From Candidatus Saccharimonadota bacterium (GTDB taxonomy: Bacteria; Patescibacteriota; Saccharimonadia; Saccharimonadales; Saccharimonadaceae): a stretch of DNA of 64,000 bases. The translations under genes were made by a program, and so were the position numbers. Positions 18,983 to 59,598 of this stretch are shown here, in pieces. Under the pieces are notes generated by a model, which ran no database searches, was not told the origin of the DNA, and worked only from the letters and a program-made list of their open reading frames with translations. Position 1 is the first letter of the stretch. Each line of letters begins with the position of its first letter. The DNA lies in NCBI GenBank assembly GCA_026395405.1, contig JAPLYU010000001.1, forward strand, positions 250,865 to 314,864, read 5' to 3'.

Positions 18983-20068
18983 ATGCGACAGCGTACACGT
19001 AGTTCTACATCTACCAACCATCATCTAACACCTACCAGCATCGGTTTTACTCTTATTGAGCTGGTAATCGTCATCGCCGTTATAGCTATCGTTGCCGTGT
19101 TAGGTATGGCAGGTTATAACGCAGAAATTAACAGCACAATCAGTTCCTCTATTCAATCAAGCCTAAAGAACACCTCAAAACAATTAAACGTTGATCAGGC
19201 TCGCAGTATTACTGGTATTTTTCCAGCTACTCTTGCTGATGCTAATAACGGTACGGGTATTAGTTTTAACACAGACACAACGGTGGTATACAAAGTTGAT
19301 AATGCCGATACCCCTAAAACGTTCTGTCTATCAGCGACTCAAAGAGGTCAAAGTTACTTTATCACCCAAGAAGGCACCATATTTGCAGGACCCTGCCCGG
19401 TTCTATACCTCGATGCAGGTATTTCCACGTCATACCCAGGTACAGGCGCTATCTGGTATGATTTGAGCGGGAATGGAAATAATGGCACGTTGGCAAATGG
19501 ACCGAATTATAGTAGCTCAAATGGAGGGTCATTGGGTTTTAATTATGATATACCAAACTATGTTACAGTTGCTCTAGCAAATTCATTTAATAAAACCGAA
19601 GGGACAATTAACCTTTGGGTTAACCCAACAAGATATAATGGTGGAAATGGATATTTTGTAAATCGTGAAGACGCTACTCCAAATGCTACTGATTGGTTTT
19701 GGATTGGCCCATACAGTGATACATTTTATTTTAGAATTGGGAATGGAGCGGATTGTTGCAGCAATGACCTTTCTTTTGGTAGCGTTTCTACAGTTATTCC
19801 TATTAATACCTGGACTAATATGAGCTTTACTTGGAAAATTAATGGAAGATCTGTAATTTATAAAAATGGAAATCCATTAACATCAAGAACCATTGGAAAT
19901 ATACCTAATACTAACCCAGCAACTAATGGAACATTTGGACTTGGGCATACAAATGGACCAAGTTATTTTGATGGTAAAATGTCAGTCATTCAATCCTACA
20001 ACAGAGCTCTTAGTACAAACGAAATTCAACAAAACTACAACATACTTAAGGGTCGATTCGGCCTATAG
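18983..20068 (+). CDS. type IV pilin-like protein fused to a LamG/concanavalin-A-like lectin domain
   Basis: Class III signal SIG/FTLIELVIVIAVIAIVAVLG. The C-terminus has GTINLWVNP...FYFRIGNG...FDGKMSVIQSYNRALSTNEIQQNY, typical of LamG_3 jelly-roll domains. Confidence 0.8.
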   Translation: MRQRTRSSTSTNHHLTPTSIGFTLIELVIVIAVIAIVAVLGMAGYNAEINSTISSSIQSSLKNTSKQLNVDQARSITGIFPATLADANNGTGISFNTDTTVVYKVDNADTPKTFCLSATQRGQSYFITQEGTIFAGPCPVLYLDAGISTSYPGTGAIWYDLSGNGNNGTLANGPNYSSSNGGSLGFNYDIPNYVTVALANSFNKTEGTINLWVNPTRYNGGNGYFVNREDATPNATDWFWIGPYSDTFYFRIGNGADCCSNDLSFGSVSTVIPINTWTNMSFTWKINGRSVIYKNGNPLTSRTIGNIPNTNPATNGTFGLGHTNGPSYFDGKMSVIQSYNRALSTNEIQQNYNILKGRFGL

Positions 20069-20124
20069 TTTTAAATAATACCTTCGAAGACTATTATTTA
20101 ATCTGTTACAATATTACTAGAACT

Positions 20125-21609
20125 ATGGAAAAAAAATTATACATTACAACCGCAATTCCTTATGTAAACGCGCCGCCTCACATCGGCAACGCCCTTGACT
20201 ATTTGCTAGCCGATATTTGGACACGTTATCAAAAACAAAACGGGAACGAAGTGCGTTTTCAGGTTGGCACAGACGAACATGGAAATAAAATTGCCGCCAA
20301 GGCAGCCGAATCTGGAATTGATCCCAAAACCTACGTCGATAAAATGTATGTAAATTTCGAAGCATTGATGAAAAAAGTCGGCGCCAGCTATACTGATTTT
20401 ATTCGTACAACCGACCCGAAACACATAGAAGCCGTTCAAATTATCTGGCAAAAACTACAGCAATATATTTACAAGGGGACGTATGAGGGTTGGTATTGTG
20501 TCGGTTGCGAATCATTTGTTTCCGACAAGGAAGCCACCGAAAACGGCGGGGTTTGCCCAGATCACAATCAACCATATCAGCGCCTAAGCGAAGAAAACTA
20601 TTATTTCAAAGCCAGCGCTTTTTCTGATGCGGTCCGTGAAGCAATTAAAAGCGGCGAAATGCAAATCGTTCCGGAATTTCGTAAAAAAGAATTTCTAGAA
20701 CTTATGAAAGACGGTCTGCAGGATGTCAGCATTTCCAGGCCGCGCAAAAACCTCAGTTGGGGTGTTCCAGTGCCAGGTGACCCCGATAATATTATGTATG
20801 TTTGGATGGATGCACTGTCGAACTATATCACCGTATTGGGCTATCCAAATAATCCGACTTGGCAAGAATTTTGGCCAGCAGATGTAGAAGTTTTAGGCAA
20901 AGATATCATGCGTTTTCACGCTGGTCTTTGGCCGGCAATGTTATTGGGGCTGGGACTGCCTTTGCCGAAAAAACTATTAGTCCACGGATTTGTTAACGTT
21001 GGTGGCGCCAAAATGAGTAAAAGCGTCGGAAACATCGTTGACCCTAACCAGATTATCGATGAATATGGTGTTGATGCTTTTCGCTATTTCTTTTCACGGC
21101 ACATCCCGACACTAGATGACGGTGACTTCACTTGGGAGAAGTTCGAAACTGCTTATAATACAGAACTGGCCAACGATCTAGGTAACCTAGTTTCGCGAAT
21201 CGCCAGCATGGTTACTCGTTACGAGGCTGGTGTTATTGGCGTTGTCAATCATGGCGAACATGACATGAACGTTTATCACGAAACGATGGACTCATTGGAA
21301 TTTAATAAGTCCATGGACGAGACTTGGTCAAAGGTCCGCAGTCTGAACCAATATATTGAAAGCGTCAAACCGTGGGTAATTGCCAAACAAATAGAAAAAA
21401 ACCCAGAAGCCGCACCACATTTATCAGAGGTGTTAACTTACTCGGTTGGCTCAATCATGCAAATTGCGGATTTACTAGTTCCATTTTTGCCCGACACTGC
21501 CAGTAAAATTCATAAAGTATTTGAAACTGGAAAAATCGTAGCGCTTGACGGCGTGTTATTCCCAAAAATCTATATTCACACCGAAAGCCCGAATCCTGTC
21601 AAGAAATAG
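20125..21609 (+). CDS. metG: methionyl-tRNA synthetase (short form)
   Basis: HIGH-type motif PPHIGNAL, KMSKS motif and a Cys-rich CP1 knuckle (CVGCESF...CPDH). Confidence 0.9.
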   Translation: MEKKLYITTAIPYVNAPPHIGNALDYLLADIWTRYQKQNGNEVRFQVGTDEHGNKIAAKAAESGIDPKTYVDKMYVNFEALMKKVGASYTDFIRTTDPKHIEAVQIIWQKLQQYIYKGTYEGWYCVGCESFVSDKEATENGGVCPDHNQPYQRLSEENYYFKASAFSDAVREAIKSGEMQIVPEFRKKEFLELMKDGLQDVSISRPRKNLSWGVPVPGDPDNIMYVWMDALSNYITVLGYPNNPTWQEFWPADVEVLGKDIMRFHAGLWPAMLLGLGLPLPKKLLVHGFVNVGGAKMSKSVGNIVDPNQIIDEYGVDAFRYFFSRHIPTLDDGDFTWEKFETAYNTELANDLGNLVSRIASMVTRYEAGVIGVVNHGEHDMNVYHETMDSLEFNKSMDETWSKVRSLNQYIESVKPWVIAKQIEKNPEAAPHLSEVLTYSVGSIMQIADLLVPFLPDTASKIHKVFETGKIVALDGVLFPKIYIHTESPNPVKK

Positions 21610-21612
21610 ACC

Positions 21613-28147: not shown

Positions 28148-29770
28148 ATGGCATATAAAAAATCAAAACAATCCGCTTTTACTATCGTCGAACTTCTAGT
28201 CGTCATAGTAGTTATCGGCATCTTAGCTGCCATTACAATCGTGACTTACGCAAATATATCCCAAAAAGCCACCGTTGCATCAATCCAGTCAGATTTATCC
28301 AACGCCCAAACCCAATTAAAACTGTTTCAAACCGATAACACGGCATTTCCAAACTCCGTTACTGACTGTCCAGTTCCATCAACCGGTAGTTTATGTCTTA
28401 AAGTAAGTTCTGGCAACACTATTTCCAGTTATTCAGCTAATAACTCAGCTAACCCGCAAACCTACAGTTTATCTGTTATGCACGGTAGCACCATATACAC
28501 CGTTACTAGCACTACCGTTCCAACTACCCTTGCTTCGGCTCCACTTTCCCCGGTAGCTGACTGGTTGGCAATGGCCCAGGGTGATCATTATGGTAATGTG
28601 TATGATTTGATAGGTAAACAGTGGGCTACCGTAGCTAGGGTTGGTCCAAAAACTATCTACGACCCGGGGACAAACCACGTATATGACGTACCCGATAATT
28701 ATTTGGGGATAAACCCGCGTAGCGATGGTAAGTCGGGTTCCGAGGCAGAATTCGAAAATACGGGGACTAATTATATAACCAACTCGTACTTCAATACCGA
28801 CTCAAACAGTGACGGCTTAGCAGATAGTTGGGGTGAGACCAATAAGGCAACCTCGGGCGCGACCACTTACACATTATCAAACAGCAGCATATATGGAAAA
28901 GCCCAGAGAGCTCAATACACGGGTCAGGCCGGTGATTCTAACAGCGGTTTTGACCTTCGTTCGTTCAGTAGCGCATCTTTTGTTGCAACCGACCCGGTCA
29001 CGGAGTCGATATTTATAAAAGGTGCTTGCACCGGATGCACTGTAAAATTATGGGCTGTCAGTTATCCTGATTATGCGACCGTTGTAATGTCCAGCGCGAT
29101 AGCCTTGACCAATCAATGGCAAAGAGTGTCCGTAAGTGGGGTAGTCCCTGCCGGTGATACTAATATGTATTTGTATATTCAAGTCAGAGCGGTTGATACG
29201 GCAGACGTATTAGATATTAGCTTGTCGGCCGCCCAAGTGGAAAAAGCGGCGTATACAACTTCTTATATCCCGACAACTGCCGCTATTGCTACGAGGAACG
29301 CCGATTCAACTACAATACCAACCACAAATTGGAATGCCGATACAGGAGCTTCTGTTGTAGTGGCGGGCGATAACCCGTGCCGAGCGTCGGGTGGCTGTGC
29401 GGGTGGCTATTGGCGTGTAAGTTCGGGTAGTAATAACCTCCGGACGTATGCTGGATACACATCATCATATTTAACAGAGGACTATAACGCATCGACTTAT
29501 TATGACTCTCGTGGGATAACGGCGGGATATCATACTCGGGCTGGTCGATGGGACAACGGAAATACCATTCGAAGCTATGTTGATGGCGTTGCTGGAGCTA
29601 GAACTGACGTATATACCACATTATCACCGTTTGCTGGGACTGCGATGTTGGGTGCGTATAACAGCTCAAACTATTTTAATTCCAATATCCAACGGTTCAC
29701 CTTTTACTCGTCAGCACTATCAGACGCAGACATCATGACCGCTAGCAACGCTGTCAAAGATGGCCCATAG
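28148..29770 (+). CDS. type IV pilin-like protein fused to CBM-like jelly-roll and LamG-like domains
   Basis: Class III signal KQSA/FTIVELLVVIVVIGILAAI. Mid-region NSYFNTDSNSDGLADSW...QWQRVSVSG resembles carbohydrate-binding jelly-rolls of tail-fibre-type proteins. C-terminal ...RSYVDGVAG...NIQRFTFYSSALSDADI is LamG-like. Confidence 0.75.
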   Translation: MAYKKSKQSAFTIVELLVVIVVIGILAAITIVTYANISQKATVASIQSDLSNAQTQLKLFQTDNTAFPNSVTDCPVPSTGSLCLKVSSGNTISSYSANNSANPQTYSLSVMHGSTIYTVTSTTVPTTLASAPLSPVADWLAMAQGDHYGNVYDLIGKQWATVARVGPKTIYDPGTNHVYDVPDNYLGINPRSDGKSGSEAEFENTGTNYITNSYFNTDSNSDGLADSWGETNKATSGATTYTLSNSSIYGKAQRAQYTGQAGDSNSGFDLRSFSSASFVATDPVTESIFIKGACTGCTVKLWAVSYPDYATVVMSSAIALTNQWQRVSVSGVVPAGDTNMYLYIQVRAVDTADVLDISLSAAQVEKAAYTTSYIPTTAAIATRNADSTTIPTTNWNADTGASVVVAGDNPCRASGGCAGGYWRVSSGSNNLRTYAGYTSSYLTEDYNASTYYDSRGITAGYHTRAGRWDNGNTIRSYVDGVAGARTDVYTTLSPFAGTAMLGAYNSSNYFNSNIQRFTFYSSALSDADIMTASNAVKDGP

Positions 29771-30525: not shown

Positions 30526-31791
30526 ATGGTATTCAAAAAACTGCGAAACATGCGAAAAGAGAACGCGTCGGATGATTATATCGTGGCGCTGGATATTGGA
30601 ACCGAATACGTCAAAGCTTTGGTTGCTAGGCTAGATGGTGAAGAGTTAAATATCGTCGGTGTTGGACGTACCCACCAGCAAATTAGCGACATGCATTCCG
30701 GTGCCATTGCTGATATTTCCGGAGTTGTTCGAAACTGTGAAGACGCACTGGCTGACGCCGAAGACCAGTCCGGAATTCAGGCGAAAAACGTAGTTATTGG
30801 AATTGCCGGCGAATTAGTTAAAGGGGTGACTAATACTATTCGTTATCGTCGACCACAGCCTGACAGGCCACTGGATACGTCCGAAATGGAATTTATTATC
30901 GAAAAAGTCCAGGAACGTGCACAGAACAAGGCGCAAAAACAGATTGCATTGGAAACCGGTAACGAAGATGTCGAAATCAAACTAGTTAACAGCGCGCTAG
31001 TCAGTATTCACATTGATGGTTATAAAGTAAGTAATCCAATCGGTTTTCAGGGCCATGATGTGGCTGTCCAGATTTATACGGCTTTTGCACCGATGGTTCA
31101 TATAGGTGCACTAGAGCGAGTTGCCGATGAATTATCACTTGAACTTCTGGCAGTTGCAGCCGAACCTTTTGCTGTCAGTCGCAGTGTGCTGGGGAACGAT
31201 GCAAACAGTAATTTTACGGCAATCTTGGCCGATGTTGGTGGCGGAACAACCGATATTGCTGTTGTTGACGATGGCGGTGTCGAAGGTACAAAGATGTTTG
31301 GTATTGGAGGCCGAAGTTTTACTCGTACAATCGCCAGTGAAATGAATATAGCATACGACGACGCCGAAAAACTAAAGGTAAATATTGAAAGTGACAAAAT
31401 AAAACCCGCCGTAGTCACAGACGTTAATAAGGCCATCGATAAATCATTAGAGGTCTGGGTTTCCGGTGTTGAACTGGCATTAAGTGAATTTGATTCAGCC
31501 GACCACTTGCCGAATAGGATTCTATTATGTGGCGGTGGTTCCAGCCTAACCAGATTAGTTGAAGCTTTGCAGAAACAGGAATGGCACAAAGACCTGCCGT
31601 TTACGAAAAAGCCGACGGTTCATCATATTCATCCTTCAGATGTCGCCGGAATTAACGATTTGACCGAACTTGCGAACGACCACACATACATTACGGCCAT
31701 GGGTTTGCTGCGGGTTGGCTATGATACAATTGTTGGCGGTGGCGAAGGCAGCACAATGAAGGAAAAGTTAAACAAGATTCTGCGAATCTAA
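30526..31791 (+). CDS. ftsA: cell division protein FtsA (actin-like ATPase)
   Basis: VALDIGTEYVKALV, GIAGELV, ADVGGGTTDIAV and LCGGGSSL phosphate/adenosine motifs in the FtsA order. Confidence 0.75.
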   Translation: MVFKKLRNMRKENASDDYIVALDIGTEYVKALVARLDGEELNIVGVGRTHQQISDMHSGAIADISGVVRNCEDALADAEDQSGIQAKNVVIGIAGELVKGVTNTIRYRRPQPDRPLDTSEMEFIIEKVQERAQNKAQKQIALETGNEDVEIKLVNSALVSIHIDGYKVSNPIGFQGHDVAVQIYTAFAPMVHIGALERVADELSLELLAVAAEPFAVSRSVLGNDANSNFTAILADVGGGTTDIAVVDDGGVEGTKMFGIGGRSFTRTIASEMNIAYDDAEKLKVNIESDKIKPAVVTDVNKAIDKSLEVWVSGVELALSEFDSADHLPNRILLCGGGSSLTRLVEALQKQEWHKDLPFTKKPTVHHIHPSDVAGINDLTELANDHTYITAMGLLRVGYDTIVGGGEGSTMKEKLNKILRI

Positions 31792-31792
31792 C

Positions 31793-35050: not shown

Positions 35051-35197
35051 GGTGACAGCACATTTGTGGTTTAGTCTACTGGTGCAGTTTATTTTTATAA
35101 CTGCGGGTGGGTAACACGAATCATAAATGAGCCTACCAATAAATGTCGTACGGGCGCAACAATCTAGAACTAATATTATTTAATATAAAGGTCGAAG

Positions 35198-36463
35198 GTG
35201 CCCCGTTCTTGCGAGAAGATAAGACAAAGTAGGGTAGACGCCACTGTAGCAATGCAGTTCGGCGGGAGATTGAAAATTCGTAACCCGATCAAATTGAGAT
35301 TACCTCAAAAATCTGTTAACGCCAATAAACAGCAAACCCAGGCAAAAACTCGTCGTAGGACGAAGAGCTTGCTGAAACCATCCGTACTTGCTGTCTATGT
35401 TGGTATTTTTGTTGTTATTATTGCTTTTGTTTTTATCGGTTATCATGAACCGAAAGATACTTCAACGGTGGCAAACGCCACCACTGTTACGTCTCCGACT
35501 AGTCAGATTGACCAAACCTCGGTTGATAATGTTGTTGCTACCAATGTTGCGGCAAGCGTTGCTAGTGCGGCTAATTTGCCTATCGCTACGTCTGTTTCCA
35601 ATATGGCAGTATCAGCTCGGGCTAAAAGCCAATTCTTGCAGTCAGACAGTCAGGGCCAGGGAACAACTAAACCGCAACTTGTTGGTTCGGACACGTCAAC
35701 TAAACGTGATGTCATCAGTTATACGGTTAAAGCTGGCGATACGGTCGGCGCAATTGCTGCGCAATTTGGCATAACAAGTCAAACTATCAAATGGGCGAAC
35801 AATTTAACGTCAGATACGCCAACGGTTGGTTCACAACTGCGAATACTCCCTGTTGACGGTGTTCTTTATTCTGTTAAATCGGGCGATACGATTGATTCAA
35901 TCGCTACGAAATATGCGGTCGACAAAGCGCGCTTGATTTTGTATAACGACCTTGACATGAGTGGTCTGCAACCTAACACCAGTATTATTTTGCCAAGTGC
36001 GGTACTACCTGGAAACGAGCGTCCCGGATATGTTGCACCAGTAATTGCGACTGCGAATAATGACTACAACGTATTTTACGGTGTTTCTGGAACTGGTTTT
36101 GGCGGATCAACCTGGAGGATTGGCGTAGGAACTCCTGACAACGGACTTTATGCTCACGGCAACTGTACACTTTACGCCTACAACCGCAGGAAAGCCCTTG
36201 GCTTGCCTGTTGGCGATCACTGGGGAAATGCCGGTACGTGGGCACCAATGGCTGCATCGGAAGGCTATGTTGTTAATCACTCCCCCGGTGTCGGAGCAAT
36301 TATGGCTGACTACGGCCATGTTGCAATCGTTGAATCCTTGTTGCCAAACGGGGATATCAGTATCAGCGAGATGAACGCATATGTTTCTGGTGGCGGATAT
36401 AATATCGTTTCAGGACGTATAGTTATCGCCGGAAACACTGGCCAATACTGGTACATTCACTAA
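35198..36463 (+). CDS. secreted peptidoglycan hydrolase: TM anchor, 2x LysM, C-terminal CHAP domain
   Basis: LysM repeats (YTVKAGDTVGAIAAQFGI..., YSVKSGDTIDSIATKYAV...). CHAP Cys/His region GNCTLYAYNRR...GHVAIVE. The start is uncertain: GTG at 35198 or ATG at 35252. Confidence 0.8.
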   Translation: MPRSCEKIRQSRVDATVAMQFGGRLKIRNPIKLRLPQKSVNANKQQTQAKTRRRTKSLLKPSVLAVYVGIFVVIIAFVFIGYHEPKDTSTVANATTVTSPTSQIDQTSVDNVVATNVAASVASAANLPIATSVSNMAVSARAKSQFLQSDSQGQGTTKPQLVGSDTSTKRDVISYTVKAGDTVGAIAAQFGITSQTIKWANNLTSDTPTVGSQLRILPVDGVLYSVKSGDTIDSIATKYAVDKARLILYNDLDMSGLQPNTSIILPSAVLPGNERPGYVAPVIATANNDYNVFYGVSGTGFGGSTWRIGVGTPDNGLYAHGNCTLYAYNRRKALGLPVGDHWGNAGTWAPMAASEGYVVNHSPGVGAIMADYGHVAIVESLLPNGDISISEMNAYVSGGGYNIVSGRIVIAGNTGQYWYIH

Positions 36464-47755: not shown

Positions 47756-49222
47756 ATGAAATTGAACGATAAATTAAAAACATTACCAATTTCGCCTGGA
47801 GTTTACTTTCATAAAGATAAAAAAGGCGAGATTATTTACGTTGGTAAAGCGGCAGTTTTAAAAAATCGAGTCAAACAGTATTTCCAAAAATCACGCAACA
47901 TGGACATCAAAACCCGGGCGCTAGTAGCCGAAATCGCTGATACGGATTGGGTTGAAACCGAAAGTGAAATTGACGCACTATTTTTAGAGGCAGAAATGGT
48001 CAAACGATATATGCCTCGATACAACATTTTACTTCGTGATGACCGGTCATTGATCTATGTTCGAATCGATATGAAAAGTCAGTGGCCAACAGTTAGTTTT
48101 ACACGTAATCCGGCAGACGATAAAGCAGAATATTTCGGGCCGTATTTTAACAGTTTTGCTGTTAAAAAAGCTTTGCGATATTTGCGTCGGGTATTTCCTT
48201 ACTATACAAAAACCCCTAAAGATAACGATAAACCTGACTTGTATGCTCACCTAGGACTGGCGCCGGTCAATATGAATCCCGATGAATATAAAGCCAACCT
48301 ACGCAAATTAGTCAGCTATATAAATGGCAACAGAAAAACCATAGCTGCTGATTTAGAGCGTGATATGAAATTAGCAGCAAAATCTCAGGATTTTGAAAAA
48401 GCGGCAAATATTCGAAATAAACTACGCAACCTGCGTGAATTGCAGCGCCGAATTATGTTCGGTGACAAAGAATTTTTAGATATATCTAAAGACGAAGCTC
48501 TTAGTGATTTGACCGATTTGCTGAATCTGGTAAAAGTACCGGTCCGTATCGAAGGTTACGACATATCGCATATGGGCGGAGTGAATGTTGTTGCCAGTAT
48601 GGTGGTTTTTAAAAACGGCGTCAGTGACAGGGGACAATATCGAAAATTTAAAACCAAAATTGAACGTAATGACGACTTTGCTAATATGAACGAAGTAATA
48701 GCCAGACGCTTCAGTCAAAATAATATTAAAAATTGGGGCAAACCGGACTTGGTATTGATTGACGGTGGTAAGGGACAGCTTGATGCAGCACTTCGGGCGC
48801 GCGATAAATCAGAACATACCGAAATTCCGTTTATAGGATTAGCAAAGCGCGATGAGCAAATTGTTTTAAAAGATATCCGAATAAATAAACAAAAGCTGAC
48901 AGAAGTCGATGGCACTACTGAGTTAACAGCAGATTTTACGCTAATCAATTTGCCAAAATCATCGGCGGTTGTAAAACTATTGCAACGTATACGCGATGAA
49001 TCCCACCGTTTCGCAGTCAGTTACCACACGGTATTGAAACGCTCCAAGCAAACCGCTAGTTCTCTGGATGAAATACCTGGTATTGGTCCTAAAACCCGGG
49101 CTAAATTAATTCGAAAATTCGGCAGTATTCGTAATTTAACACTAGCGGATGAATCAGACATCACTTTATTAATTGGACCCAACAAGGCGGGGCTTGTCAT
49201 TCTGTACCTAAGAGAGCTATAA
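47756..49222 (+). CDS. uvrC: excinuclease ABC subunit C (compact)
   Basis: GIY-YIG PGVYFHKDKKGEIIYVGKA, UVR domain (DFEKAANIRNKLRNL), EGYDISHMGG and a C-terminal HhH IPGIGPKTRAKLIRKFGS. Confidence 0.85.
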   Translation: MKLNDKLKTLPISPGVYFHKDKKGEIIYVGKAAVLKNRVKQYFQKSRNMDIKTRALVAEIADTDWVETESEIDALFLEAEMVKRYMPRYNILLRDDRSLIYVRIDMKSQWPTVSFTRNPADDKAEYFGPYFNSFAVKKALRYLRRVFPYYTKTPKDNDKPDLYAHLGLAPVNMNPDEYKANLRKLVSYINGNRKTIAADLERDMKLAAKSQDFEKAANIRNKLRNLRELQRRIMFGDKEFLDISKDEALSDLTDLLNLVKVPVRIEGYDISHMGGVNVVASMVVFKNGVSDRGQYRKFKTKIERNDDFANMNEVIARRFSQNNIKNWGKPDLVLIDGGKGQLDAALRARDKSEHTEIPFIGLAKRDEQIVLKDIRINKQKLTEVDGTTELTADFTLINLPKSSAVVKLLQRIRDESHRFAVSYHTVLKRSKQTASSLDEIPGIGPKTRAKLIRKFGSIRNLTLADESDITLLIGPNKAGLVILYLREL

Positions 49223-49236
49223 TTCTAGTAAAGCTT

Positions 49237-52002
49237 ATGTTCAGTTGTGGGAATAAACCAAAAGATCAAAAGAAATTGCTGTTTAGTTCAGCCTTTACTT
49301 TAATTGAACTTATAGTGGTTGTCACAATCATAGCCATTTTAGCGACAATCGGTGTTGTCGGGTACAATAGTTGGCGGCAAGCCACCGCAACAGCACAGTT
49401 GAAAAGCGATTTAAATAGCGTCGCAACTGCAATGGAAGACAACCGTAACTTTAACAATAAATATCCCGCTACAATTCCGTCAACCTTTAACCCAACCACC
49501 GGCGTAACCCTTAGTGGTGGTAGTGATGATGGCGGTTTGACATTTTGTGTTAGCGCCGTAAATTCACAATTTCCAAGCCTTTCATTTCATATTGACTCAA
49601 CAAATAACGGACCACAACCGGGTGTTTGTGCGACCCAAAAACTATTAGCGACCTACGCGGGCACTGGTGGAACAGTAAGCCCTGGTGGTACGTATGCTTC
49701 CAATTCGGTGCAAACAATAACGGCCACACCAAGTCAATATTATCGTGGTCTGGGTAACAATACGAATGTCTGGACCGGTGATAGTGGGTGTGCAGGTGGT
49801 GGTAATATTCTAAGCCATACAATTACAATGGATACCAAAAAAGATTGCACTGCTAATTTCGAACCGATTCCAATAGTATGCGTTCCCTCCGCACCGACGG
49901 TAACGCATGCAACAGTAGCCGGGACAACGACTTTTTCATGGACTCCTGGTGTATGCGGTGGCGCCTCAACTAGATATCAATATCGATATACGATTTCACC
50001 ATCTGGCTTTGATTCCGGCTGGATATCCACCGCCTCGCCGTCTGCCGCCTTTACGACTACGACCGAAGGCCAAACCTACTCGTTGGATGTTCAAACGCAG
50101 TTCTATAACCCGGCTACAAGCACCGCCTGGGGCCCTACGGGAACAGATGGCTGGTTTTTTACACCAACCATCCCAGTAATTACCTGTACGACAGCCTCCA
50201 GTTCGTCGGTTAACTGCTCGTGGACTTCTAACCCATACGCCACTAACTATTCGATGGATCGTGCGACCAACTCTTCGTTTACCACCGGCTTAACCACAAT
50301 AACCCAGGCTGGAACGACCTATACTTCAACCGGACTAGCGCAGGGAACAACCTATTATTTCCGGAGTAAGACTAACCTTGCCGGCAGTTCTAGTGCGTAT
50401 TCGCCTTACGATACTGCGACGACGACTGTCGACATTTGTAACGTACCTGTTGATAATTATTCGACAGTTGGTGCAACTACAACTTGGACGTGGAGCGCAC
50501 CAACCTGTCCTCCGGGAACATCTGCTCGTTATCGCTACGACTATACCATTGCTCCAATAGGTTTTGACTCAGGTTGGACGTCAACCGCCTCAACATCTGT
50601 CGCCTTTACGACCTCGACCGAAGGCCAGACTTATTGCGTAGCTTTGCAAGCACAGGCTTACACGGGGTCTGCATCAAGCGCTTGGACAGCATCTGACACA
50701 GACTGTTACTTAAGAGGGATTCCAACCCCAACGATTACTGCCACAACTGCTTCTAGCACCTCGGTCAATGTGTCGTGGACTTCAGATGCGTATGCTACCA
50801 GCTATACCATGGATCGTGCGACCAACTCTTCGTTTACCACCGGCTTAACCACAATAACCCAGGCTGGAACTACCTATACTTCAACCGGACTCAACGAGGG
50901 AGTAACTTATTATTTCCGTGTAAATTCTAACCTTCCAGCTGGTCCAAGCGCAGACTCACCTTATGGTACTGCTACAACGACAATAACTACTCCGACGCCA
51001 AACCCACCAACAACTACCGATAACACTGTTGGGGCGACTACGACGTGGACGTTCTCTGCCGAGACCTGTGCCGGCGGCACAACCTTAGAATATCGATATG
51101 ACTACACTATCGTACCGCCACCACTCGGTTCTGGTGGATATGACTCTGGTTGGATGGCTACTTCTGCTTCGTCAGTGGCGTTTACAACTTCAACTGAAGG
51201 CAAGACATACAATGTAGTTGTTCAAGCAAGATGTTACACAGGCGCTACTACTAGTTCCTGGACATCATCCAGTGCAAATAACACATATTACCGCATCATT
51301 AACTACTATTTGACGTTAGCTGGATCGAACTGTACTTTTAGCCAGAGTCCGGGTATGGGTCCTTATCCTGAAGGCTCTGCTGCTACGATGACCTGCACTC
51401 CAACCGCAACAAACTATTTTGACCATTGGTCCGGTGATACCGGCTGTACAATAAATGGTGGTACGGATTACACCCATACAGCCAGTCACACAATAACGAT
51501 GGACTCAAATAAGTCATGTGTCGCCCTGAGTTCTCATTGGATATACGCAGACGTCGGGGGTCAGATAGGTGGAAAATATGTATGGTACAAAGATCTGTCT
51601 GCCGAATATGCGTATAAGGTAAATAATAACGCCGATAATAATACCTGGACCGTTATGGGGGGTGATTCAAGCCATCCAAATCAAAGGGTATTGAGGGACC
51701 CAAATACTGCTCCGGGGAATACCCTTGACTGGGCCTCGTGGTATCCGTCTCAATATCGTTGTAATAGTAGCCTTGGTGGCCGCGTGCCAAACAATGGTGA
51801 ATTGGCTGGTATTATTGCTAACAAAAGCTTGTTTAATCAAGATTACGGATTCGGTACCCTTGATGATTGGTATGGGTCATCAAATGAGGCAACTGATTAT
51901 GACACAACAATCAGCCCAGTCAGAAACCGAATCACTGATGATTATGGAGATAGAGGTAAAACTGGAACCGCCGCTATCAGATGTATCGCTGATAACGTGT
52001 AG
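49237..52002 (+). CDS. giant type IV pilin-like adhesin: pilin N-terminus, InlB-B-repeat-like module, FN3-like repeats, C-terminal DUF1566/Lcl-like domain
   Basis: Class III signal FSSA/FTLIELIVVVTIIAILATI. Repeated YRYDYTI.P.GFDSGW...TEGQTY and SW/NSSFTTGLTTITQAGTTYTSTGL..G.TYYFR (FN3-like) units. The C-terminus with ...CNSSLGGRVPNNGELAGI...WYGSSNEA is tentatively DUF1566-like. Confidence 0.8.
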   Translation: MFSCGNKPKDQKKLLFSSAFTLIELIVVVTIIAILATIGVVGYNSWRQATATAQLKSDLNSVATAMEDNRNFNNKYPATIPSTFNPTTGVTLSGGSDDGGLTFCVSAVNSQFPSLSFHIDSTNNGPQPGVCATQKLLATYAGTGGTVSPGGTYASNSVQTITATPSQYYRGLGNNTNVWTGDSGCAGGGNILSHTITMDTKKDCTANFEPIPIVCVPSAPTVTHATVAGTTTFSWTPGVCGGASTRYQYRYTISPSGFDSGWISTASPSAAFTTTTEGQTYSLDVQTQFYNPATSTAWGPTGTDGWFFTPTIPVITCTTASSSSVNCSWTSNPYATNYSMDRATNSSFTTGLTTITQAGTTYTSTGLAQGTTYYFRSKTNLAGSSSAYSPYDTATTTVDICNVPVDNYSTVGATTTWTWSAPTCPPGTSARYRYDYTIAPIGFDSGWTSTASTSVAFTTSTEGQTYCVALQAQAYTGSASSAWTASDTDCYLRGIPTPTITATTASSTSVNVSWTSDAYATSYTMDRATNSSFTTGLTTITQAGTTYTSTGLNEGVTYYFRVNSNLPAGPSADSPYGTATTTITTPTPNPPTTTDNTVGATTTWTFSAETCAGGTTLEYRYDYTIVPPPLGSGGYDSGWMATSASSVAFTTSTEGKTYNVVVQARCYTGATTSSWTSSSANNTYYRIINYYLTLAGSNCTFSQSPGMGPYPEGSAATMTCTPTATNYFDHWSGDTGCTINGGTDYTHTASHTITMDSNKSCVALSSHWIYADVGGQIGGKYVWYKDLSAEYAYKVNNNADNNTWTVMGGDSSHPNQRVLRDPNTAPGNTLDWASWYPSQYRCNSSLGGRVPNNGELAGIIANKSLFNQDYGFGTLDDWYGSSNEATDYDTTISPVRNRITDDYGDRGKTGTAAIRCIADNV

Positions 52003-52081
52003 AACTAGGCCTATTTCCAACATATTTATTTGACGTCTATTTCATTTATTACATGAAACAGTTATAATTCTGGATAAGCAT

Positions 52082-54352
52082 ATGCGTGGTGATAAGGACA
52101 ATAAAGACATCAAAAAAAAGAAAGCGCTGTTTAGCTCGGCTTTTACTCTTGTTGAACTTATAGTGGTTGTGACTATAATCGTAATCCTAGCAACAATCGG
52201 AGTTGTTGGGTATAACAGCTGGCGACAAGCCACTGCATCAGCACAACTGAAAAGTGATTTGAATACCGTTGCTACGGCTATGGAAAACTACCGTAACTTT
52301 AATAACGGATATCCAAATACAGTTCCATCATCCTTCAATCCAAGTAGTGGGGTAACTCTTAGCGGTGGTAGTGATGATGGTGGAGTGACATTTTGTATTA
52401 CCGCGGTCAATTCTCAATTCCCGGGCCTTTCATACCACATAGACTCAACAAACAATGGGCCTCAATCTGGCGTATGTGTATCACAAAAATTATTGGCGAC
52501 TTTTGCGGGCACTGGCGGTACAGTTAGTGCTGGTGGTTCATACGCAACTAACTCTGTCCAGACGATAACGGCTACGCCTAATACAAACTATTCATTTAGT
52601 AGTTGGACTGGTGATACTGGTTGTTCAGGTACTGCCAGCCACACAATCACAATGGACGCGAATAAAACTTGTACAGCGAATTTTGTAACCTGCACGTTAA
52701 CGTTAATCGCAGGTAGTGGCGGGACCATTACTGGAGGTGGCAATAATGTTTGTGGTACGACCCCACCAATTACAAGCACCCCTAGTACATACTACTCATT
52801 TACTAGTTGGACCGGTAGTACCGGTTGCTCTGGCACTGCCACTCATAACATCACTATGGATACAAATAAAACATGTACCGCGAACTTCTCGCCAACGGCA
52901 ATTGCCGCGCCATCGGCTCCAATCGTCACACCGGTAACTGTCACTGATACTACAACCTATTCATGGGGTGCAGCCTCGTGTCCGGGGAATACAGCCAGGT
53001 ATCAATATGACTATACAATTTCACCTGCAGGTTACGATTCTGGCTGGACGGCAACTGCATCAACTTCCGTTGCCTTTACAACCACAACTGAAGGCCAAAC
53101 TTACACTGTAGCCGTTCAAGCCCAATGTTATAACGCGGCGACAAGTAGTCCTTGGAGTTCATCGGGATCGGGCAGTTATTTACGTCCTATAACTTATCAA
53201 ACTTTGACATTAACTCCTGGAACTGGCGGTACTGTCAGCGGTGGAGGATCGTTCGCTACTGGTTCGTCTCCAACAATGACATCTACTCCTAATGCGAACT
53301 ATACATTTACCAGTTGGACCGGTAGTACCGGTTGTAGCGGTACACAAGTTCATACGATAACAATGGACGCAGCAAAGTCCTGTACGGCGAACTTTACGGC
53401 AACAGGTATCGCTACACCGGCAAATCCTATAGTAACGCATGCGACGGTTGGGGCTACAACAACGTTTTCATGGGGCGCAGCCTCGTGTCCGGGTAATTCA
53501 GCCAGATATCAATATGATTATACATATAACACCACGCCAACTCCTTTCGATTCCGGTTGGACAGCAACTGCATTGACATCGTTTGCACCTACAACTTCAA
53601 CCGGACCACTAACATATAGTTTGGCGGTACAAGCTCAATGTTATAACGGCGGCAACCAAAGCGCTTGGAGTGGCAGCGGAACAGATAGCTATCTAAGGCC
53701 TGGTGGTACCGGAGGAACAATTACATATTCAGGTGGTAGAACAATACATACATTTACAAGTAGTGGATCACTCGTGATTACAGGCGGGCCATTGTCTGGT
53801 GGTACCGTACTTATTGTCGCTGGTGGTGTTGGTGGTGCAGGTGGTGTTCAGGGGGGGCCGGCTGGGTCCGGCGGTGCCGGCGGAAAAGTCACAGCCCTCA
53901 GCAGTCAAAGTTTTAATGGGACCACTACGGTCACTGTCGGCGCTGCCGGTGCCGCAAGTGTGTTTGGCGGTACGACATCTAGTGGCACCGGAGCAACCGG
54001 TGGTACACCGAATGGCGAGGGAGCCAATGGCCTCCCGGGCGCAGCAGGTACTTCGTCAAGTATTAGCGGTTCGTCGATTTATTACGGCGGCGGTGGTGGT
54101 TCTGGCGCTTTTGTTGGTTATCCCGTTCACAGTATACATTTTTACGGTGGGGCTGGTGGCTCCGGAGGCGGTGGCACCGGGGGAGATGCATATTATGACG
54201 CCGTTGGGGGATGGAGTTATGGCTTTGTGGGGGTTGATGGAGCGGCAAATACGGGCGGCGGCGGCGGTGGTGGTGGCACCGGTTATGACTCTCCTGAATC
54301 TGGCGGCAACGGCGGTAAGGGAATTGTGATAGTTTCATATCCAACGCCTTAA
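52082..54352 (+). CDS. giant type IV pilin-like adhesin: pilin N-terminus, 4x InlB-B-repeat-like modules, FN3-like units, C-terminal glycine-rich domain
   Basis: N-terminal about 150 aa nearly identical to the 49237 gene. Modules GTGGTVS.GG...ITATPN.NY.F.SWTG.TGCSG...HTITMD..K.CTANF occur 4 times. The last about 220 aa are Gly-rich and end in GGNGGKGIVIVSYP. Confidence 0.8.
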   Translation: MRGDKDNKDIKKKKALFSSAFTLVELIVVVTIIVILATIGVVGYNSWRQATASAQLKSDLNTVATAMENYRNFNNGYPNTVPSSFNPSSGVTLSGGSDDGGVTFCITAVNSQFPGLSYHIDSTNNGPQSGVCVSQKLLATFAGTGGTVSAGGSYATNSVQTITATPNTNYSFSSWTGDTGCSGTASHTITMDANKTCTANFVTCTLTLIAGSGGTITGGGNNVCGTTPPITSTPSTYYSFTSWTGSTGCSGTATHNITMDTNKTCTANFSPTAIAAPSAPIVTPVTVTDTTTYSWGAASCPGNTARYQYDYTISPAGYDSGWTATASTSVAFTTTTEGQTYTVAVQAQCYNAATSSPWSSSGSGSYLRPITYQTLTLTPGTGGTVSGGGSFATGSSPTMTSTPNANYTFTSWTGSTGCSGTQVHTITMDAAKSCTANFTATGIATPANPIVTHATVGATTTFSWGAASCPGNSARYQYDYTYNTTPTPFDSGWTATALTSFAPTTSTGPLTYSLAVQAQCYNGGNQSAWSGSGTDSYLRPGGTGGTITYSGGRTIHTFTSSGSLVITGGPLSGGTVLIVAGGVGGAGGVQGGPAGSGGAGGKVTALSSQSFNGTTTVTVGAAGAASVFGGTTSSGTGATGGTPNGEGANGLPGAAGTSSSISGSSIYYGGGGGSGAFVGYPVHSIHFYGGAGGSGGGGTGGDAYYDAVGGWSYGFVGVDGAANTGGGGGGGGTGYDSPESGGNGGKGIVIVSYPTP

Positions 54353-56831: not shown

Positions 56832-56864
56832 CATCGGATATACTTACGCTGTACGAAAACTTAT

Positions 56865-56994: not shown

Positions 56995-57071
56995 GGGCGC
57001 TTAGCTCAGTTGGCTAGAGCATCTCGTTTACACCGAGAGGGTCGGGGGTTCGAGCCCCTCAGCGCCCACCA
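56995..57071 (+). tRNA. tRNA-Val (anticodon UAC), CCA encoded
   Basis: Acceptor GGGCGCT/AGCGCCC. D loop agctcagttggctagagc. Anticodon loop ttTACac. T arm cgggg-gttcgag-cccct region. Discriminator A plus CCA. Confidence 0.9.
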
Positions 57072-57077
57072 AATAAA

Positions 57078-57106
57078 GAAACCAATCCTTGTGATTGGAT
57101 TTTTTA
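57078..57106 (+). terminator. intrinsic terminator after tRNA-Val
   Basis: ccaatc / gattgg stem (extendable) with loop cttgt, followed by a T6 run. Confidence 0.6.
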
Positions 57107-57127
57107 TTTGGTACGCCCCGAATGGAC

Positions 57128-57296
57128 TCGAAACCCCGACGCCAAAGGTTGGGGGTGAGAACTGCCCAGAATGGCAGTTCGCAAGGCGACTTTCCGATGC
57201 AAACTATGTTTGCAATCGTGAAATCGCGGGGTCGCGGAACGTGACCGAGCCCCCGCCTGTCTGTTCGACGGAACGGGCAGGCCTCAGCGCCCACCA
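57128..57296 (+). repeat. tRNA-linked conserved structured element, copy B, ending in an interrupted duplicate of the tRNA-Val 3' end
   Basis: Same module order as 10132-10304. It ends in cgagcccc, a 28-nt G-U hairpin, and cctcagcgcccacca (57282-57296), which copies tRNA-Val 57057-57071. Confidence 0.6.
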
Positions 57297-57341
57297 AGTA
57301 CGTTATTTATCTGAACGATTTATTAGTGTTAGAATTGTAGT

Positions 57342-57515
57342 ATGGATAAAACATCCGAGGAATCAATCCAGAAGCCAGAGTTGCCGGTTGTGGACCCCGA
57401 AAAAATACAACGACTATTGGCACGGGGCGCAATGATTCAAGAAGAGTTTCAAAAACTGCAACCATCACTAAGAAAATTAGACTTAGATGATACGGGTTTA
57501 ATTTTTCGCGATTAG
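57342..57515 (+). CDS. possible small ORF (57 aa), hypothetical
   Basis: ATG-initiated MDKTSEESIQKPELPVVDPEKIQRLLARGAMIQEEFQKLQPSLRKLDLDDTGLIFRD. It falls below the ORF-track cutoff and has no clear SD. Confidence 0.25.
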   Translation: MDKTSEESIQKPELPVVDPEKIQRLLARGAMIQEEFQKLQPSLRKLDLDDTGLIFRD

Positions 57516-57736
57516 TTTATTAGAAAACTAGCCTCATTGACGAACTACTACAATCATCGTAGAATAACAACTAACTTGTTGAACTGAAACAGCTCCAAGG
57601 TACATTGACAAGCAGACAAATTCACAAGGTGGGGCCTCTGTGCTGAACATTCAACGTGGGGGCCTCATTTTGTGATATCTAATGGAGCGAAAGATATAGG
57701 CCGTATATACCTATTGTCGAACCAGGAGGTAATGTC

Positions 57737-58111
57737 GTGTGTGACATAAGCAAACTTAACTATCTGCGGGAGACCCGAGCACGGAAGCGCCAACCGGGAG
57801 TTTCATACCCAGGGTTGGTTGTCACTGACGATCATCTCATCGCCGCTCTTGAGGCAGTTTTGAAAGAGCGGGAGCTGTGCGGCATCTGCGAGCATTACAG
57901 AAGCGAGCATAGTTACTGCCATCTGGCTGGTGACTTGCCGCGGAGGAATCCGGATGAGGATCCGAACGACTACGGATGGCCGGCATGGGTACAGGACCCC
58001 AATGTTGTTGTGACCGTTCAGCTTCCACAAGCCTTCGTTCGCAACTGCGACCACTGTCACTTTGTGACGTCAGCGTGGGAGCCGTGCCGCTCGCCCGTAT
58101 CTTCGACCTAG
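57737..58111 (+). CDS. hypothetical Cys/His-rich small protein (GC-rich, GTG start)
   Basis: AGGAGG lies 8 nt upstream of the GTG. 124 aa with CGICEHYRSEHSYCH and CDHCH clusters suggesting metal binding. Composition is unlike the host background. Confidence 0.55.
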   Translation: MCDISKLNYLRETRARKRQPGVSYPGLVVTDDHLIAALEAVLKERELCGICEHYRSEHSYCHLAGDLPRRNPDEDPNDYGWPAWVQDPNVVVTVQLPQAFVRNCDHCHFVTSAWEPCRSPVSST

Positions 58112-58187
58112 TCTAGCGCAAAGGTATAGGCAGTCCGGGTTGTATAACCGGCTGCCTTGAGGGTATGTGCCTCTGTCTGCTTGTCAT

Positions 58188-58242
58188 ATCGCTTTCATGA
58201 ATGTGCATTCATGCTGATGAGTCCTAAAGGACGAAAAGCGAT
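58188..58242 (+). ncRNA. type III hammerhead ribozyme motif
   Basis: AUCGCUU-U-[CAUGAAU GUGC AUUCAUG]-CUGAUGA-[GUCC UAAA GGAC]-GAA-AAGCGAU. All invariant core nucleotides are present, with three Watson-Crick stems of 7, 4 and 7 bp. Confidence 0.8.
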
Positions 58243-58277
58243 TATTCTGGATAGACGTATTCATGTAGTCGTGAATT

Positions 58278-58347
58278 CGAGGGGTCGCCAAAGATGACCG
58301 AGCCCCCGCCTGTCTGTTCGACGGAACGGGCAGGCCTCAGCGCCCCC
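58278..58347 (+). repeat. third copy of the GGGGTCGC...tRNA-Val-3'-end module (right boundary of the 1-kb insert)
   Basis: cgaggggtcgccaaaga, then the 51-nt exact repeat including the G-U hairpin, then cctcagcgccccc. Confidence 0.65.
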
Positions 58348-58386
58348 TTAATTCCCCTAATGTTAATCAAATGCTATACTCAATTC

Positions 58387-59598
58387 ATGAAAGTTGCTAT
58401 TAGGAACAGATCATCAGGCTTTACCATCGTCGAACTCCTAGTGGTAATAGTCGTCATCGGTATCCTGGCAGCCATTACCATCGTCTCTTATGCTAATATC
58501 TCTCAAAAAGCCGTCGCCACTTCAATAACATCAGACTTAGACAGCGCCTCTAGACAATTAAAATTGTATCAAATTGACCACGGTACTTATCCAGCATTAC
58601 CACTAACTGTCTCCGGAAATAAATACTGTCCATCTGATGATAATCGGTACTGCTTTAAGGCCAGCCCCGGTAATACTTTTACCTACACTAACGTCGCTCC
58701 ATCAACCTTTAATCTAAGAAACGAAAATAGTAGTATCAGCTACTCAACCACCAATAACTCTCAGCCCACAATCTCTAATGTAACTAATTCCTCAAATACC
58801 TGTCCAACCGGCTTTATCCCGGTTCCTGGCAGCGGTACGTATGACACCAATGACTTTTGCGTCATGAAGTACGAAGCCAGTCAGGTCGGTGTCACAACTA
58901 CGCCAATCAGTCAGTCCGGATCTCTTCCTTGGGTAAATATCTCTCAAACCACAGCCATCACCAATAGCGCCAACGTCGCCGGTTGCACCGGCTGTCATCT
59001 GATAACTGAGGCCGAATGGCTGACTCTTACTCAAAATGTTCTTAGTGTTGCTAGCAACTGGGATGATGGGTCTGGTGGCCATACCGTTGGTGTTGGATAC
59101 ATTTACTCCGGCCACAACGACAACGTCCCCGCCAATGCCCTAACAGCTGATCCGAGTGATGCTAATGGCTACGTCGGTACCGGTAATGTCGCCCCGTCAA
59201 GCCAGAAACGTACTCTAGCCTTATCTAACGGTGAAGTCATTTGGGATTTTGCTGGTAATGTCTATGAATGGACTACTGGTACCATTGGTAGTGGTCAACA
59301 ACCAGGCCTAACTGGCGAAGTAGCCTACGCCTGGAAACAATGGAATAACGGTTCACTACTGCAAAATGGCTTTCCAGCTAGTGCTATGCCGGCTTATACT
59401 GGGATACCTGGTGCCAGTGGCTGGAGTTCGGCTCAAAGTATTGGCCAAATGTATACAAATTATGGTGATGCTTCGGTGCGGGGCTTCTTACGTAGTGGCC
59501 ATTATAACAATCTTGGTAACGCTGGGGTTTTCGCTTTGAATTTGAACTATATCCCCAGTGGCACGAACACGTTTATCGGCTTTCGGGTTTCCCGGTGA
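58387..59598 (+). CDS. type IV pilin-like protein fused to an FGE-sulfatase (SUMF1/DUF323)-like domain
   Basis: Class III signal RSSG/FTIVELLVVIVVIGILAAI. The C-terminus has DFCVMKYEAS, PWVNIS, AEWLTL, DFAGNVYEWT and FIGFRVSR, resembling the FGE-sulfatase fold signature. Start set at the ATG at 58387, because the 31-codon upstream extension lies in the repeat. Confidence 0.75.
   Translation: MKVAIRNRSSGFTIVELLVVIVVIGILAAITIVSYANISQKAVATSITSDLDSASRQLKLYQIDHGTYPALPLTVSGNKYCPSDDNRYCFKASPGNTFTYTNVAPSTFNLRNENSSISYSTTNNSQPTISNVTNSSNTCPTGFIPVPGSGTYDTNDFCVMKYEASQVGVTTTPISQSGSLPWVNISQTTAITNSANVAGCTGCHLITEAEWLTLTQNVLSVASNWDDGSGGHTVGVGYIYSGHNDNVPANALTADPSDANGYVGTGNVAPSSQKRTLALSNGEVIWDFAGNVYEWTTGTIGSGQQPGLTGEVAYAWKQWNNGSLLQNGFPASAMPAYTGIPGASGWSSAQSIGQMYTNYGDASVRGFLRSGHYNNLGNAGVFALNLNYIPSGTNTFIGFRVSR

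Follow-up and report, generated by a model that had tools for sequence, protein, structure and literature searches.

The means by which ultrasmall epibionts locate and retain their bacterial hosts are still an open question, and type IV pili are the best-supported tool. In Saccharibacteria, type IV pili are conserved and needed for host binding, with an assembly machinery that is conserved in the cultured members (PMC11623550, PMC10633639), and in S. epibionticum these pili are essential (PMC10633639). We analysed here a 64-kb stretch of contig JAPLYU010000001.1 (called the window below), which contains six genes named P1 to P6 in the order of their starts (18983, 28148, 37959, 49237, 52082 and 58387). 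They encode modular type IV pilins, in which effector modules come after a pilin module of about 135 aa, itself made of a long N-terminal helix and a beta-sheet head containing a Cys pair. With a probability of about 0.7, we consider that they are modular pilins of a Saccharibacterium which keep conserved genomic slots, swap their effectors and serve for pilin-mediated presentation of these effectors to the host.

In S. sanguinis, PilC is a proven glycan-binding minor pilin (PMC9934059). Like PilB and PilC of this species, P1 to P6 start with a class III signal and have a short pilin module joined by a linker to a functional module (PMC8179133, PMC9934059), and the ConA-like lectin module of PilC is a direct Foldseek match of P3. 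Unlike pilB and pilC, which lie within a 22-kb pil locus, the six genes are scattered among housekeeping genes, and their set of effectors is not the same, with Lcl_C, a C-type-lectin (CLec) fold of the type found in diversity-generating retroelements (DGRs), long InlB-B/Fn3 stalks and Gly-rich ends. An experimental demonstration of function exists for the S. sanguinis proteins only. A survey of modular pilins collected more than 1,200 proteins with 264 architectures, many from the Candidate Phyla Radiation (CPR) and one from Saccharibacteria (PMC8179133).

In the same phylum, Nanosynbacter lyticus TM7x has two large minor pilins, PilX1 and PilX2, with lectin-like C-termini (jelly roll, RCC1 propeller) that are implicated in host binding, and this binding can be inhibited by sugars (PMC11623550). 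P1 to P6 resemble them, and they also resemble PilJ and PilK, orphan pilins encoded outside the TM7x machinery loci; the C-termini of TM7x pilins are poorly conserved (PMC11623550). The 12 pilins of TM7x are distributed in four loci and mostly clustered, unlike the six singletons or pairs found here in 41 kb. In addition, PilX1 and PilX2 have no predicted PilD signal, whereas all of P1 to P6 have one (PMC11623550), and oral Nanosynbacter, unlike the window, has no pilin after uvrC.

DGRs are abundant in CPR bacteria (reviewed in PMC10221324), and a GspG-type pilin domain is among their rare targets (PMC11661182). P6 is similar to the DGR variable proteins TaqVP of Thermus (5vf4), Mtd of a Bordetella phage (1yu0) and TvpA of Treponema (2y3c) by its CLec fold, its …GFRVSR end and its hypervariable face, and P6 relatives have complete or decaying DGR cassettes with adenine-specific differences between template repeat (TR) and variable region (VR). 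Unlike these proteins, P6 has no reverse transcriptase (RT), Avd or TR in the window, and its carrier is a type IV pilin, not a phage tail fibre or a lipoprotein. The type V tip pilins of Bacteroides likewise are pilus subunits with a DGR-diversified CLec head that forms a variable adhesive tip (bioRxiv 10.1101/2024.11.15.621889); they belong to another phylum and depend on lipoprotein processing and strand exchange, in contrast to the alpha-helical assembly of type IV pili. In the literature searched we found no description of DGR-diversified type IV pilin fusions or of the slot pattern reported here. Modular pilins, lectin-like pilins and orphan pilins are already known; what is added is the existence of conserved slots with swapped effectors and the DGR targeting of the P6 family in relatives.

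Six modular type IV pilins

We scanned all six frames of the window with the signal expression [GAS][FMILVY][TS][LIVM][LIVMA]E[LIVMTA] and observed exactly six sites, each of them at the N-terminus of a long + strand open reading frame (ORF); 81 ORFs of the window reach 100 aa or more. With a stricter class III motif there were also six sites, whereas 200 shuffles gave 0.03 on average. The cut-off of the NCBIfam prepilin-domain model TIGR02532 is exceeded by all six proteins. Moreover, a hidden Markov model (HMM) of the pilin module, built from P3 homologues, joined the six proteins with E values from 1e-10 to 1e-62 and, of the 708 ORFs with 40 aa or more, matched no others. The features of a class III signal are present in 6/6 proteins: a charged leader, Gly or Ala at position -1, Phe at +1, Glu at +5 and a hydrophobic stretch of about 20 residues. 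The leaders are basic and 10-21 aa long, and the residue at -1 is Gly in three proteins (SIG/F, SSG/F, SSG/F; the slash marks the predicted cleavage site) and Ala in the other three (QSA/F, SSA/F, SSA/F). P1 to P6 contain 37-56% of Gly, Ala, Ser and Thr, compared with 21-29% for their cytoplasmic neighbours, which is an extracellular-type composition. A first-pass annotation of this DNA had pointed to the same six genes, with the same division between Gly and Ala, and had suggested a manual scoring of class III signals; performed on the window, this scoring gave exactly the six sites, in agreement with the shuffles, TIGR02532 and the HMM.

18983-20068, + strand: P1, modular type IV pilin of 361 aa (class III signal, Pfam, TIGR02532); leader of 21 aa (…TSIG/FTLIEL), pilin module about aa 22-140, Cys115/Cys138
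28148-29770, + strand: P2, modular type IV pilin of 540 aa (class III signal, NCBIfam); leader of 10 aa (…KQSA/FTIVEL), pilin module about aa 11-120, Cys73/Cys82
37959-39041, + strand: P3, modular type IV pilin of 360 aa (AlphaFold2, Foldseek); leader of 16 aa (…RSSG/FTILEL), head Cys106/Cys132
49237-52002, + strand: P4, modular type IV pilin of 921 aa (class III signal, Pfam, homologues); leader of 19 aa (…FSSA/FTLIEL), pilin module about aa 20-135
52082-54352, + strand: P5, tandem paralogue of P4, 756 aa (BLASTP against P4, Pfam); leader of 20 aa (…FSSA/FTLVEL)
58387-59598, + strand: P6, modular type IV pilin of 403 aa (AlphaFold2, Foldseek); leader of 11 aa (…RSSG/FTIVEL), head Cys81/Cys90

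The pilin fold is seen in the AlphaFold2 models of P3 and P6, both obtained with homologue alignments. In P3 (predicted local distance difference test, pLDDT, of 88.3), an alpha-1 helix (residues 19-70) is followed by head strands (77-126) and a beta-sandwich (156-339). In P6 (pLDDT 86.2), the helix covers residues 14-65 and the head strands 74-130, and a module of 260 residues comes next; the pilin part matches PilA4 of T. thermophilus (6xxd, TM 0.60). The N-terminal helix has 52 residues in each model, and a Cys pair occurs in the head region of each of the six proteins. The added domains had at first been described as standing in place of a pilin head; the models contradict this, as the head is kept and the effector comes after it.

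The effectors comprise LamG domains, a CBM-like jelly roll, Fn3 and InlB-B repeats, an Lcl_C domain, a Gly-rich end and a CLec fold. P1 carries a Laminin_G_3 lectin-type module (aa 192-349, nt 19556-20029; Pfam, 54 bits). P2 has a CBM-like jelly roll (aa 203-385, nt 28754-29302; NCBIfam GTA_spike_fiber, 55.9 bits) followed by a C-terminal LamG-like module (about aa 400-540); its full-length homologues carry PF02018 and PF13385, and a weak HMM link ties it to the LamG family of P3. The ConA/LamG-type beta-sandwich of P3 (about aa 150-360, nt 38406-39038), joined to P1 by an HMM link, matches by Foldseek the tetanus-toxin Hc domain, trans-sialidase lectin domains and S. sanguinis PilC (7oa8/7oa7, E about 1e-6).

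P4 has a stalk in which InlB-B repeats and Fn3 domains occur together with an Fn3-like 90-aa repeat in three copies, and it ends in a divergent Lcl_C/DUF1566 C-type-lectin-like domain (aa 765-921, nt 51529-51999); 19 of the 28 homologues of these C-terminal 157 aa match PF07603 (Lcl_C). P5 shares with P4 the pilin module and the first InlB-B repeat (about 190 residues, 76% identity by BLASTP), and the underlying DNA duplication (49197-49743 / 52042-52591) takes in the upstream region of both genes. Three InlB-B repeats and two Fn3-like repeats form the stalk of P5, before a glycine-rich C-terminal module (about aa 541-756, nt 53702-54349) with a weak Gly_rich_2 match. The module of P6 (aa 139-403, nt 58801-59595) is C-type-lectin/FGE-sulfatase-like. 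When the effector modules were submitted to Pfam in isolation, matches were weak or none, and a search of PDB sequences with the P4 and P6 modules gave nothing useful.

With these results, most of the domain assignments of the first-pass annotation stand: LamG-type folds in three genes (P1 by Pfam, P3 by model, Foldseek and HMM link, P2 through its PF13385 homologues), the jelly roll of P2, the Fn3/InlB-B arrays of P4 and P5 by Pfam, the DUF1566-like end of P4, the glycine-rich end of P5 and, more generally, the fusion of pilin carriers to lectin- or adhesin-type modules, of which the P3 match to the PilC lectin module is an example.

Carrier and effector are separable units when homologues are compared. 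Dozens of proteins with unrelated C-terminal Pfam domains (CBM_4_9, RCC1, Fib_succ_major, Gly_rich_2, fn3, LamG, BNR/sortilin, NHL propellers, Lcl_C) share 50-68% identity with the first 140 residues or so of P3, and the carrier of P2 is likewise joined to unrelated C-termini among its homologues. The closest relative is L006, whose UvrC is 86% identical. Directly upstream of sbcB, it has a gene for a protein, P0003, whose residues 1-145 are 68% identical to P3, while the rest resembles the effector of P2 (37% identity) and not that of P3. The junction in this comparison falls right after the last Cys of the head.

Upstream of P3 (37843-37899) and of a G5/transglycosylase gene (16922-16978), we also observed a 57-nt repeat, 91% identical between its two copies, in which a perfect hairpin (CTTTTAGAAGG-TCCG-CCTTCTAAAAG) comes after a promoter-like TTTACA…TATTATAAAAT. 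No copy of it was found in the 87 loci searched.

Conserved slots with exchanged effectors

The organism is a Saccharibacterium, as indicated by a lysM-TM7 RNA (35131-35268; Rfam, 89.9 bits) and by the UvrC relatives, since the 80 closest UvrC loci come nearly all from metagenome-assembled genomes of Saccharibacteria. All six genes are on the + strand and co-directional with their upstream neighbours, and they span 41 kb as singletons or pairs between housekeeping genes; the neighbours in the window include those for KsgA and MetRS, AlaRS, Obg and exonuclease I, UvrC, tRNA-Val and BipA. We compared these positions among species from the closest UvrC loci, the slot after uvrC being counted over 78 species.

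The gene order SbcB-UvrA-PAP2-VTT-L25-ABC-UvrC-[slot]-membrane protein-SBP5-tRNAs-BipA is conserved, and a pilin gene lies directly after uvrC in 34-36 of the 78 species. The sizes of these pilins range from bare modules of 115-130 aa to 736 aa, and the window has two there, of 921 and 756 aa; in oral Nanosynbacter, the slot contains no pilin and the gap is only 66 bp. The modules carried by uvrC-slot pilins are fn3, InlB-B, phage tail collar, Gp10_C, RCC1, NHL, LamG, Gly_rich_2, Fib_succ_major and Lcl_C. The slot between obg and sbcB, which holds P3 here, is empty in L027 and is occupied by the P0003 gene in L006 and by a DGR cassette in L013. Between tRNA-Val and BipA, four relatives have an empty slot and three (L026, L030, L031) have other pilins. 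Finally, the order KsgA-P1-MetRS is kept in five metagenome contigs (L092-L096), in which P1 is 32-42% identical to its counterpart of the window, compared with 68-74% for KsgA and 79-82% for MetRS.

At the level of sequence comparison, these data show that pilin genes hold conserved positions directly downstream of uvrC, ksgA, obg and tRNA-Val. They also show, from the same alignments, that the effector changes far more rapidly than the genes next to it: between close species it is extended, duplicated or exchanged, and the carrier stays. The first-pass annotation had described the genes as wedged between housekeeping genes; this is correct for the neighbours, but the positions are not random, as they are conserved slots with rapid exchange of modules. 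Its idea of a distributed repertoire holds beyond the window, since at least two further paralogues, P0092 and P0257, are encoded elsewhere on the same 696-kb contig.

Phage-type modules (phage tail collar, Gp10_C, tip-attachment Ig) are part of some uvrC-slot pilins in other Saccharibacteria (L006-L085), a hint that phage receptor-binding proteins and pilins share modules.

A TATAMT box is present 13-39 nt before the ATG of each pilin gene, with no obvious Shine-Dalgarno sequence. For P1, P4, P5 and P6, the box is 13-19 nt from the ATG (18940-18982, 49190-49236, 52040-52081 and 58345-58386), and this short spacing without a Shine-Dalgarno sequence suggests that these mRNAs may be leaderless or nearly so. 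The best promoter-like site between 47.5 and 60 kb is TTGTCA-18-TATAAT, which ends 14 nt before the ATG of P4.

P6 and the retroelement link of its family

The longest ORF of P6 begins at 58294. We preferred the ATG at 58387 because it gives a leader like that of the homologues, and because the longer ORF runs into a tRNA-like repeat. When the model was searched with Foldseek, DGR variable proteins came first (TaqVP with E 3e-8, Mtd, TvpA), before the formylglycine-generating enzyme (FGE), PvdO and EgtB. The homologues of P6 number more than 3,600; most are full length, with 55-66% identity. In this family, positions 372-397 are hypervariable (entropy 2.7-3.5 bits) and interleaved with invariant scaffold residues, so that P6 shows, by Foldseek and by entropy, the CLec fold with a C-terminal variable region found in DGR variable proteins. 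The corresponding segment of P6 is the following.

59479-59595, + strand: VR-equivalent segment of P6, aa 365-403 (RGFLRSGHYNNLGNAGVFALNLNYIPSGTNTFIGFRVSR), Asn-rich, the family-hypervariable face of the CLec fold

This segment is the DGR variable region in three related loci. In the first (L090:327-3366), the pilin-CLec gene is directly followed by bAvd and an RVT_1 reverse transcriptase, and a template repeat of 121 nt differs from the 3' end of the gene by 16 mismatches, 16/16 of them at TR adenines. The second (L088) has the same gene in another context; its VR differs at 16 positions from the TR of L090, 15/16 at A, and no RT was found within 2.5 kb upstream or 10 kb downstream of the gene. 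The third (L013:3-1620) combines a P6-like gene with Avd, a fragmented RT and a TR for which 12/15 mismatches are at A, and lies in the obg-sbcB slot, directly upstream of sbcB. A cluster of nine P6 homologues, defined at 90% identity and including the one on L090, is also informative: about 370 residues are near-invariant, and the proteins differ at discrete sites in the last 35 or so. By these sequence signatures, the P6 family is shown to be a bona fide DGR target in related Saccharibacteria, and P6 is, by homology, a member of this DGR-target family.

Is P6 itself an active target, hypermutated in trans by a retroelement located elsewhere in the genome, as P0092 and perhaps the Lcl_C end of P4 would be too? 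We consider this unlikely. Several observations do speak for it: the best structural matches of P6 are DGR variable proteins, its near-identical homologues vary only in the last 35 aa or so, a DGR occupies in L013 the slot held here by P3, L090 has bAvd, RT and TR beside the pilin-CLec gene with every TR/VR mismatch at a TR adenine, and the VR of L088 fits the TR of L090 at a distance from any RT detected. In addition, P6 has kept Asn where the TR of L090 encodes Asn.

On the other side, searches of the window by tblastn with the RT and Avd of L090 gave no match, and no TR was detected there, as no TR-like repeat of nt 59339-59598 or of the 3' end of P4 was found and none of the repeat pairs had an adenine bias. 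Compared with the TR of L090, P6 has 38 mismatches, which are spread over all four bases, and changes of its scaffold (W to Y, GS to LG, A to I) fall outside the adenines of that TR. The one independent assembly that covers P6 does not differ from the window, no hypervariation is seen in the P0177 cluster, and all 42 collection blocks listing P0137 have it in identical form. No RT was found within 10 kb of the homologues P0137 and P0099.

A broader proposal would join both aspects in a Saccharibacteria cassette system for host recognition, in which pilin carriers in fixed slots have interchangeable effectors and the pilin-CLec class is hypermutated by DGRs, non-adjacent copies included, P6 (nt 59479-59595) and its paralogue MCX6728638.1 being remote targets of a DGR elsewhere in the genome. 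At the level of the family, a type IV pilin carrier and CLec fold with Avd, RT and a TR that differs at adenines only are shown in relatives; the proposal as a whole, with P6 as a target, we advance as doubtful. If the remote targeting of P6 were true, the cell would carry a programmable, hypervariable pilus-tip lectin.

The surroundings of P6 have features of their own. The stretch from 57.07 to 59.69 kb, P6 included, is absent from four relatives (L008, L012, L013, L016). The 3' end of tRNA-Val (56995-57071) is found again at 57282-57300 and at 58335-58353, and it is in these copies that an 82-nt direct repeat (57211-57292 / 58264-58345, 90% identity) terminates. Over positions 57057-58353, this looks like an attachment-site duplication left by an integrated element. 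A phage origin of P6 was considered and rejected, no relative being found on the viral contigs of IMG/VR. A candidate hammerhead type III ribozyme (58188-58242, +) lies 145 nt upstream of where P6 starts, within the segment that the repeats bound; it covers the full model (1-54) with an intact CUGAUGAG…CGAAA core, and its score of 39.7 bits is under the Rfam gathering score of 48.5. As for the invariant C200-x-x-C203-H204 of P6, we rejected a heme-type CxxCH motif by inference, since it aligns before the "RLPTEAEW" motif of FGE/CLec domains.

Proposed function and rival explanations

Our preferred reading remains that the six proteins are modular type IV pilins that present their effectors to a host. 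A prepilin peptidase encoded elsewhere in the genome would cut after the Gly or Ala at -1, and the type IV pilus machinery would pull the carrier helix out of the membrane into the filament. The bulky subunits would most likely be located at the tip, or be rare subunits, and the effector modules would so be presented to cell-wall glycans of the host bacterium. We infer cleavage, incorporation and binding because of PilB and PilC of S. sanguinis, of PilX1 and PilX2 of TM7x together with its sugar-inhibitable binding, and of the essential pili of S. epibionticum.

Several points weigh against this proposal. What we observe directly is the signal, the fold and the modules, while cleavage by PilD, incorporation into the filament (probably at the tip) and binding to glycans or host are predictions by analogy. 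The pilin heads of P1, P2, P4 and P5 are assigned by homology to the pilin-module HMM, the models covering P3 and P6. With 756-921 aa, P5 and P4 are very large for filament subunits. Three of the six proteins have Ala at -1, which prepilin peptidases tolerate and which is usual in some Com pilins, but which is cleaved less well in Pseudomonas. Among the ORFs of the 64-kb window scanned, none encodes PilB, PilC, PilD, PilM or PilT, as had been noticed at first pass, and neither machinery nor prepilin peptidase is present there. A Walker-A scan of all loci gathered for comparison also turned up no PilB or PilT. Lastly, deletion of the orphan pilin PilK of TM7x gave no phenotype (PMC11623550).

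It is rather improbable, in our opinion, that the six proteins are surface proteins with a class III signal that stay anchored in the membrane and never polymerise, Fn3/InlB-B stalks lifting the binding module above the cell wall as in a bindosome. The archaeal bindosome, made of substrate-binding proteins with class III signals that serve for solute uptake and have no pilin head domain, is a precedent, as it also has a prepilin-type signal on large binding proteins encoded away from assembly genes. The distance of our genes from any assembly genes, the very long stalks of P4 and P5 and the PilK result (PMC11623550) would fit such an anchor. However, the carrier goes beyond an anchor helix: unlike bindosome proteins, P3 and P6 keep in their models the full pilin fold, with Glu5 and a head. 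Furthermore, the bare uvrC-slot pilins of 115-130 aa found in many species look like ordinary filament subunits and are homologous to the module of P4 and P5, and structurally equivalent modular pilins do enter the pili of S. sanguinis (PMC8179133, PMC9934059).

We regard as very improbable that P1 to P6 act in DNA uptake or secretion, as minor pseudopilins belonging to a Com pilus or a type II secretion-like pseudopilus. The best NCBIfam N-terminal matches are indeed GspG, GspH and ComGC, all under cut-off, and Ala at -1 is typical of some ComGC pilins. Saccharibacteria are also naturally competent, and their Com proteins work with type IV pili (PMC10633639). These matches, however, span the shared N-terminal helix only, the effectors are of lectin or adhesin types and not of DNA-binding types, and there are no com or gsp genes nearby.

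That P6 would be a surface-tethered enzyme, of the formylglycine-generating or sulfoxide-synthase type, can be practically dismissed. A weak Pfam FGE-sulfatase match (18.6-19.8 bits, under the cut-off of 23.3) and the presence of FGE, PvdO and EgtB among the Foldseek matches speak for it. Against it, these enzymes score less well than the DGR variable proteins (E 3e-4 vs 3e-8), and the C-terminal face is hypervariable in the family, as expected of a binding site and not of a catalytic site. The Cys pair that binds copper in FGE lies towards the C-terminus of the fold; beyond residue 203 P6 contains no Cys, with none in its C-terminal half, and it lacks this catalytic pair. The fold named FGE-sulfatase-like at first pass is therefore seen in P6, but the term enzyme-like does not hold, the fold being really the ligand-binding C-type-lectin fold of DGR variable proteins.

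Other features of the window were noted. The actin-fold gene at 30526-31791, considered as a possible pilM, was rejected as such and is FtsA-like (TIGR01174 ftsA 123 bits vs TIGR01175 pilM 44; Pfam FtsA 55 vs PilM_2 33). In this region (30526-33478), the FtsA-like gene is divergent and under the ftsA equivalog cut-off, no FtsZ gene adjoins it, and the next gene encodes a protein of 561 aa that has a single predicted membrane helix and matches nothing in Pfam or NCBIfam. The lysM-TM7 RNA overlaps the start of a LysM-CHAP ORF, listed from GTG 35198, and the true start of this ORF is probably further downstream because of this overlap. Between 8000 and 12000, the GC content is 50%, against about 43% elsewhere; overlapping Arg-rich ORFs without family match are found on both strands at 8259-9703, and two paralogous small membrane-anchored proteins are encoded on the minus strand (10317-10664 and 10762-11139), adjoining tRNA-Glu. 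A predicted surface protein of 562 aa with DUF11 and PKD domains (6256-7944, -) has a hydrophobic N-terminal segment that is not prepilin-type.

The window provides concrete candidate host-recognition subunits for an uncultured Saccharibacterium. Their diversity is suggested to arise in three ways, by a carrier at a fixed position, by fast exchange or growth of lectin-type modules between sister species, and by retroelement hypermutation of the binding face of one family. These candidates are testable leads for the determinants of host range.

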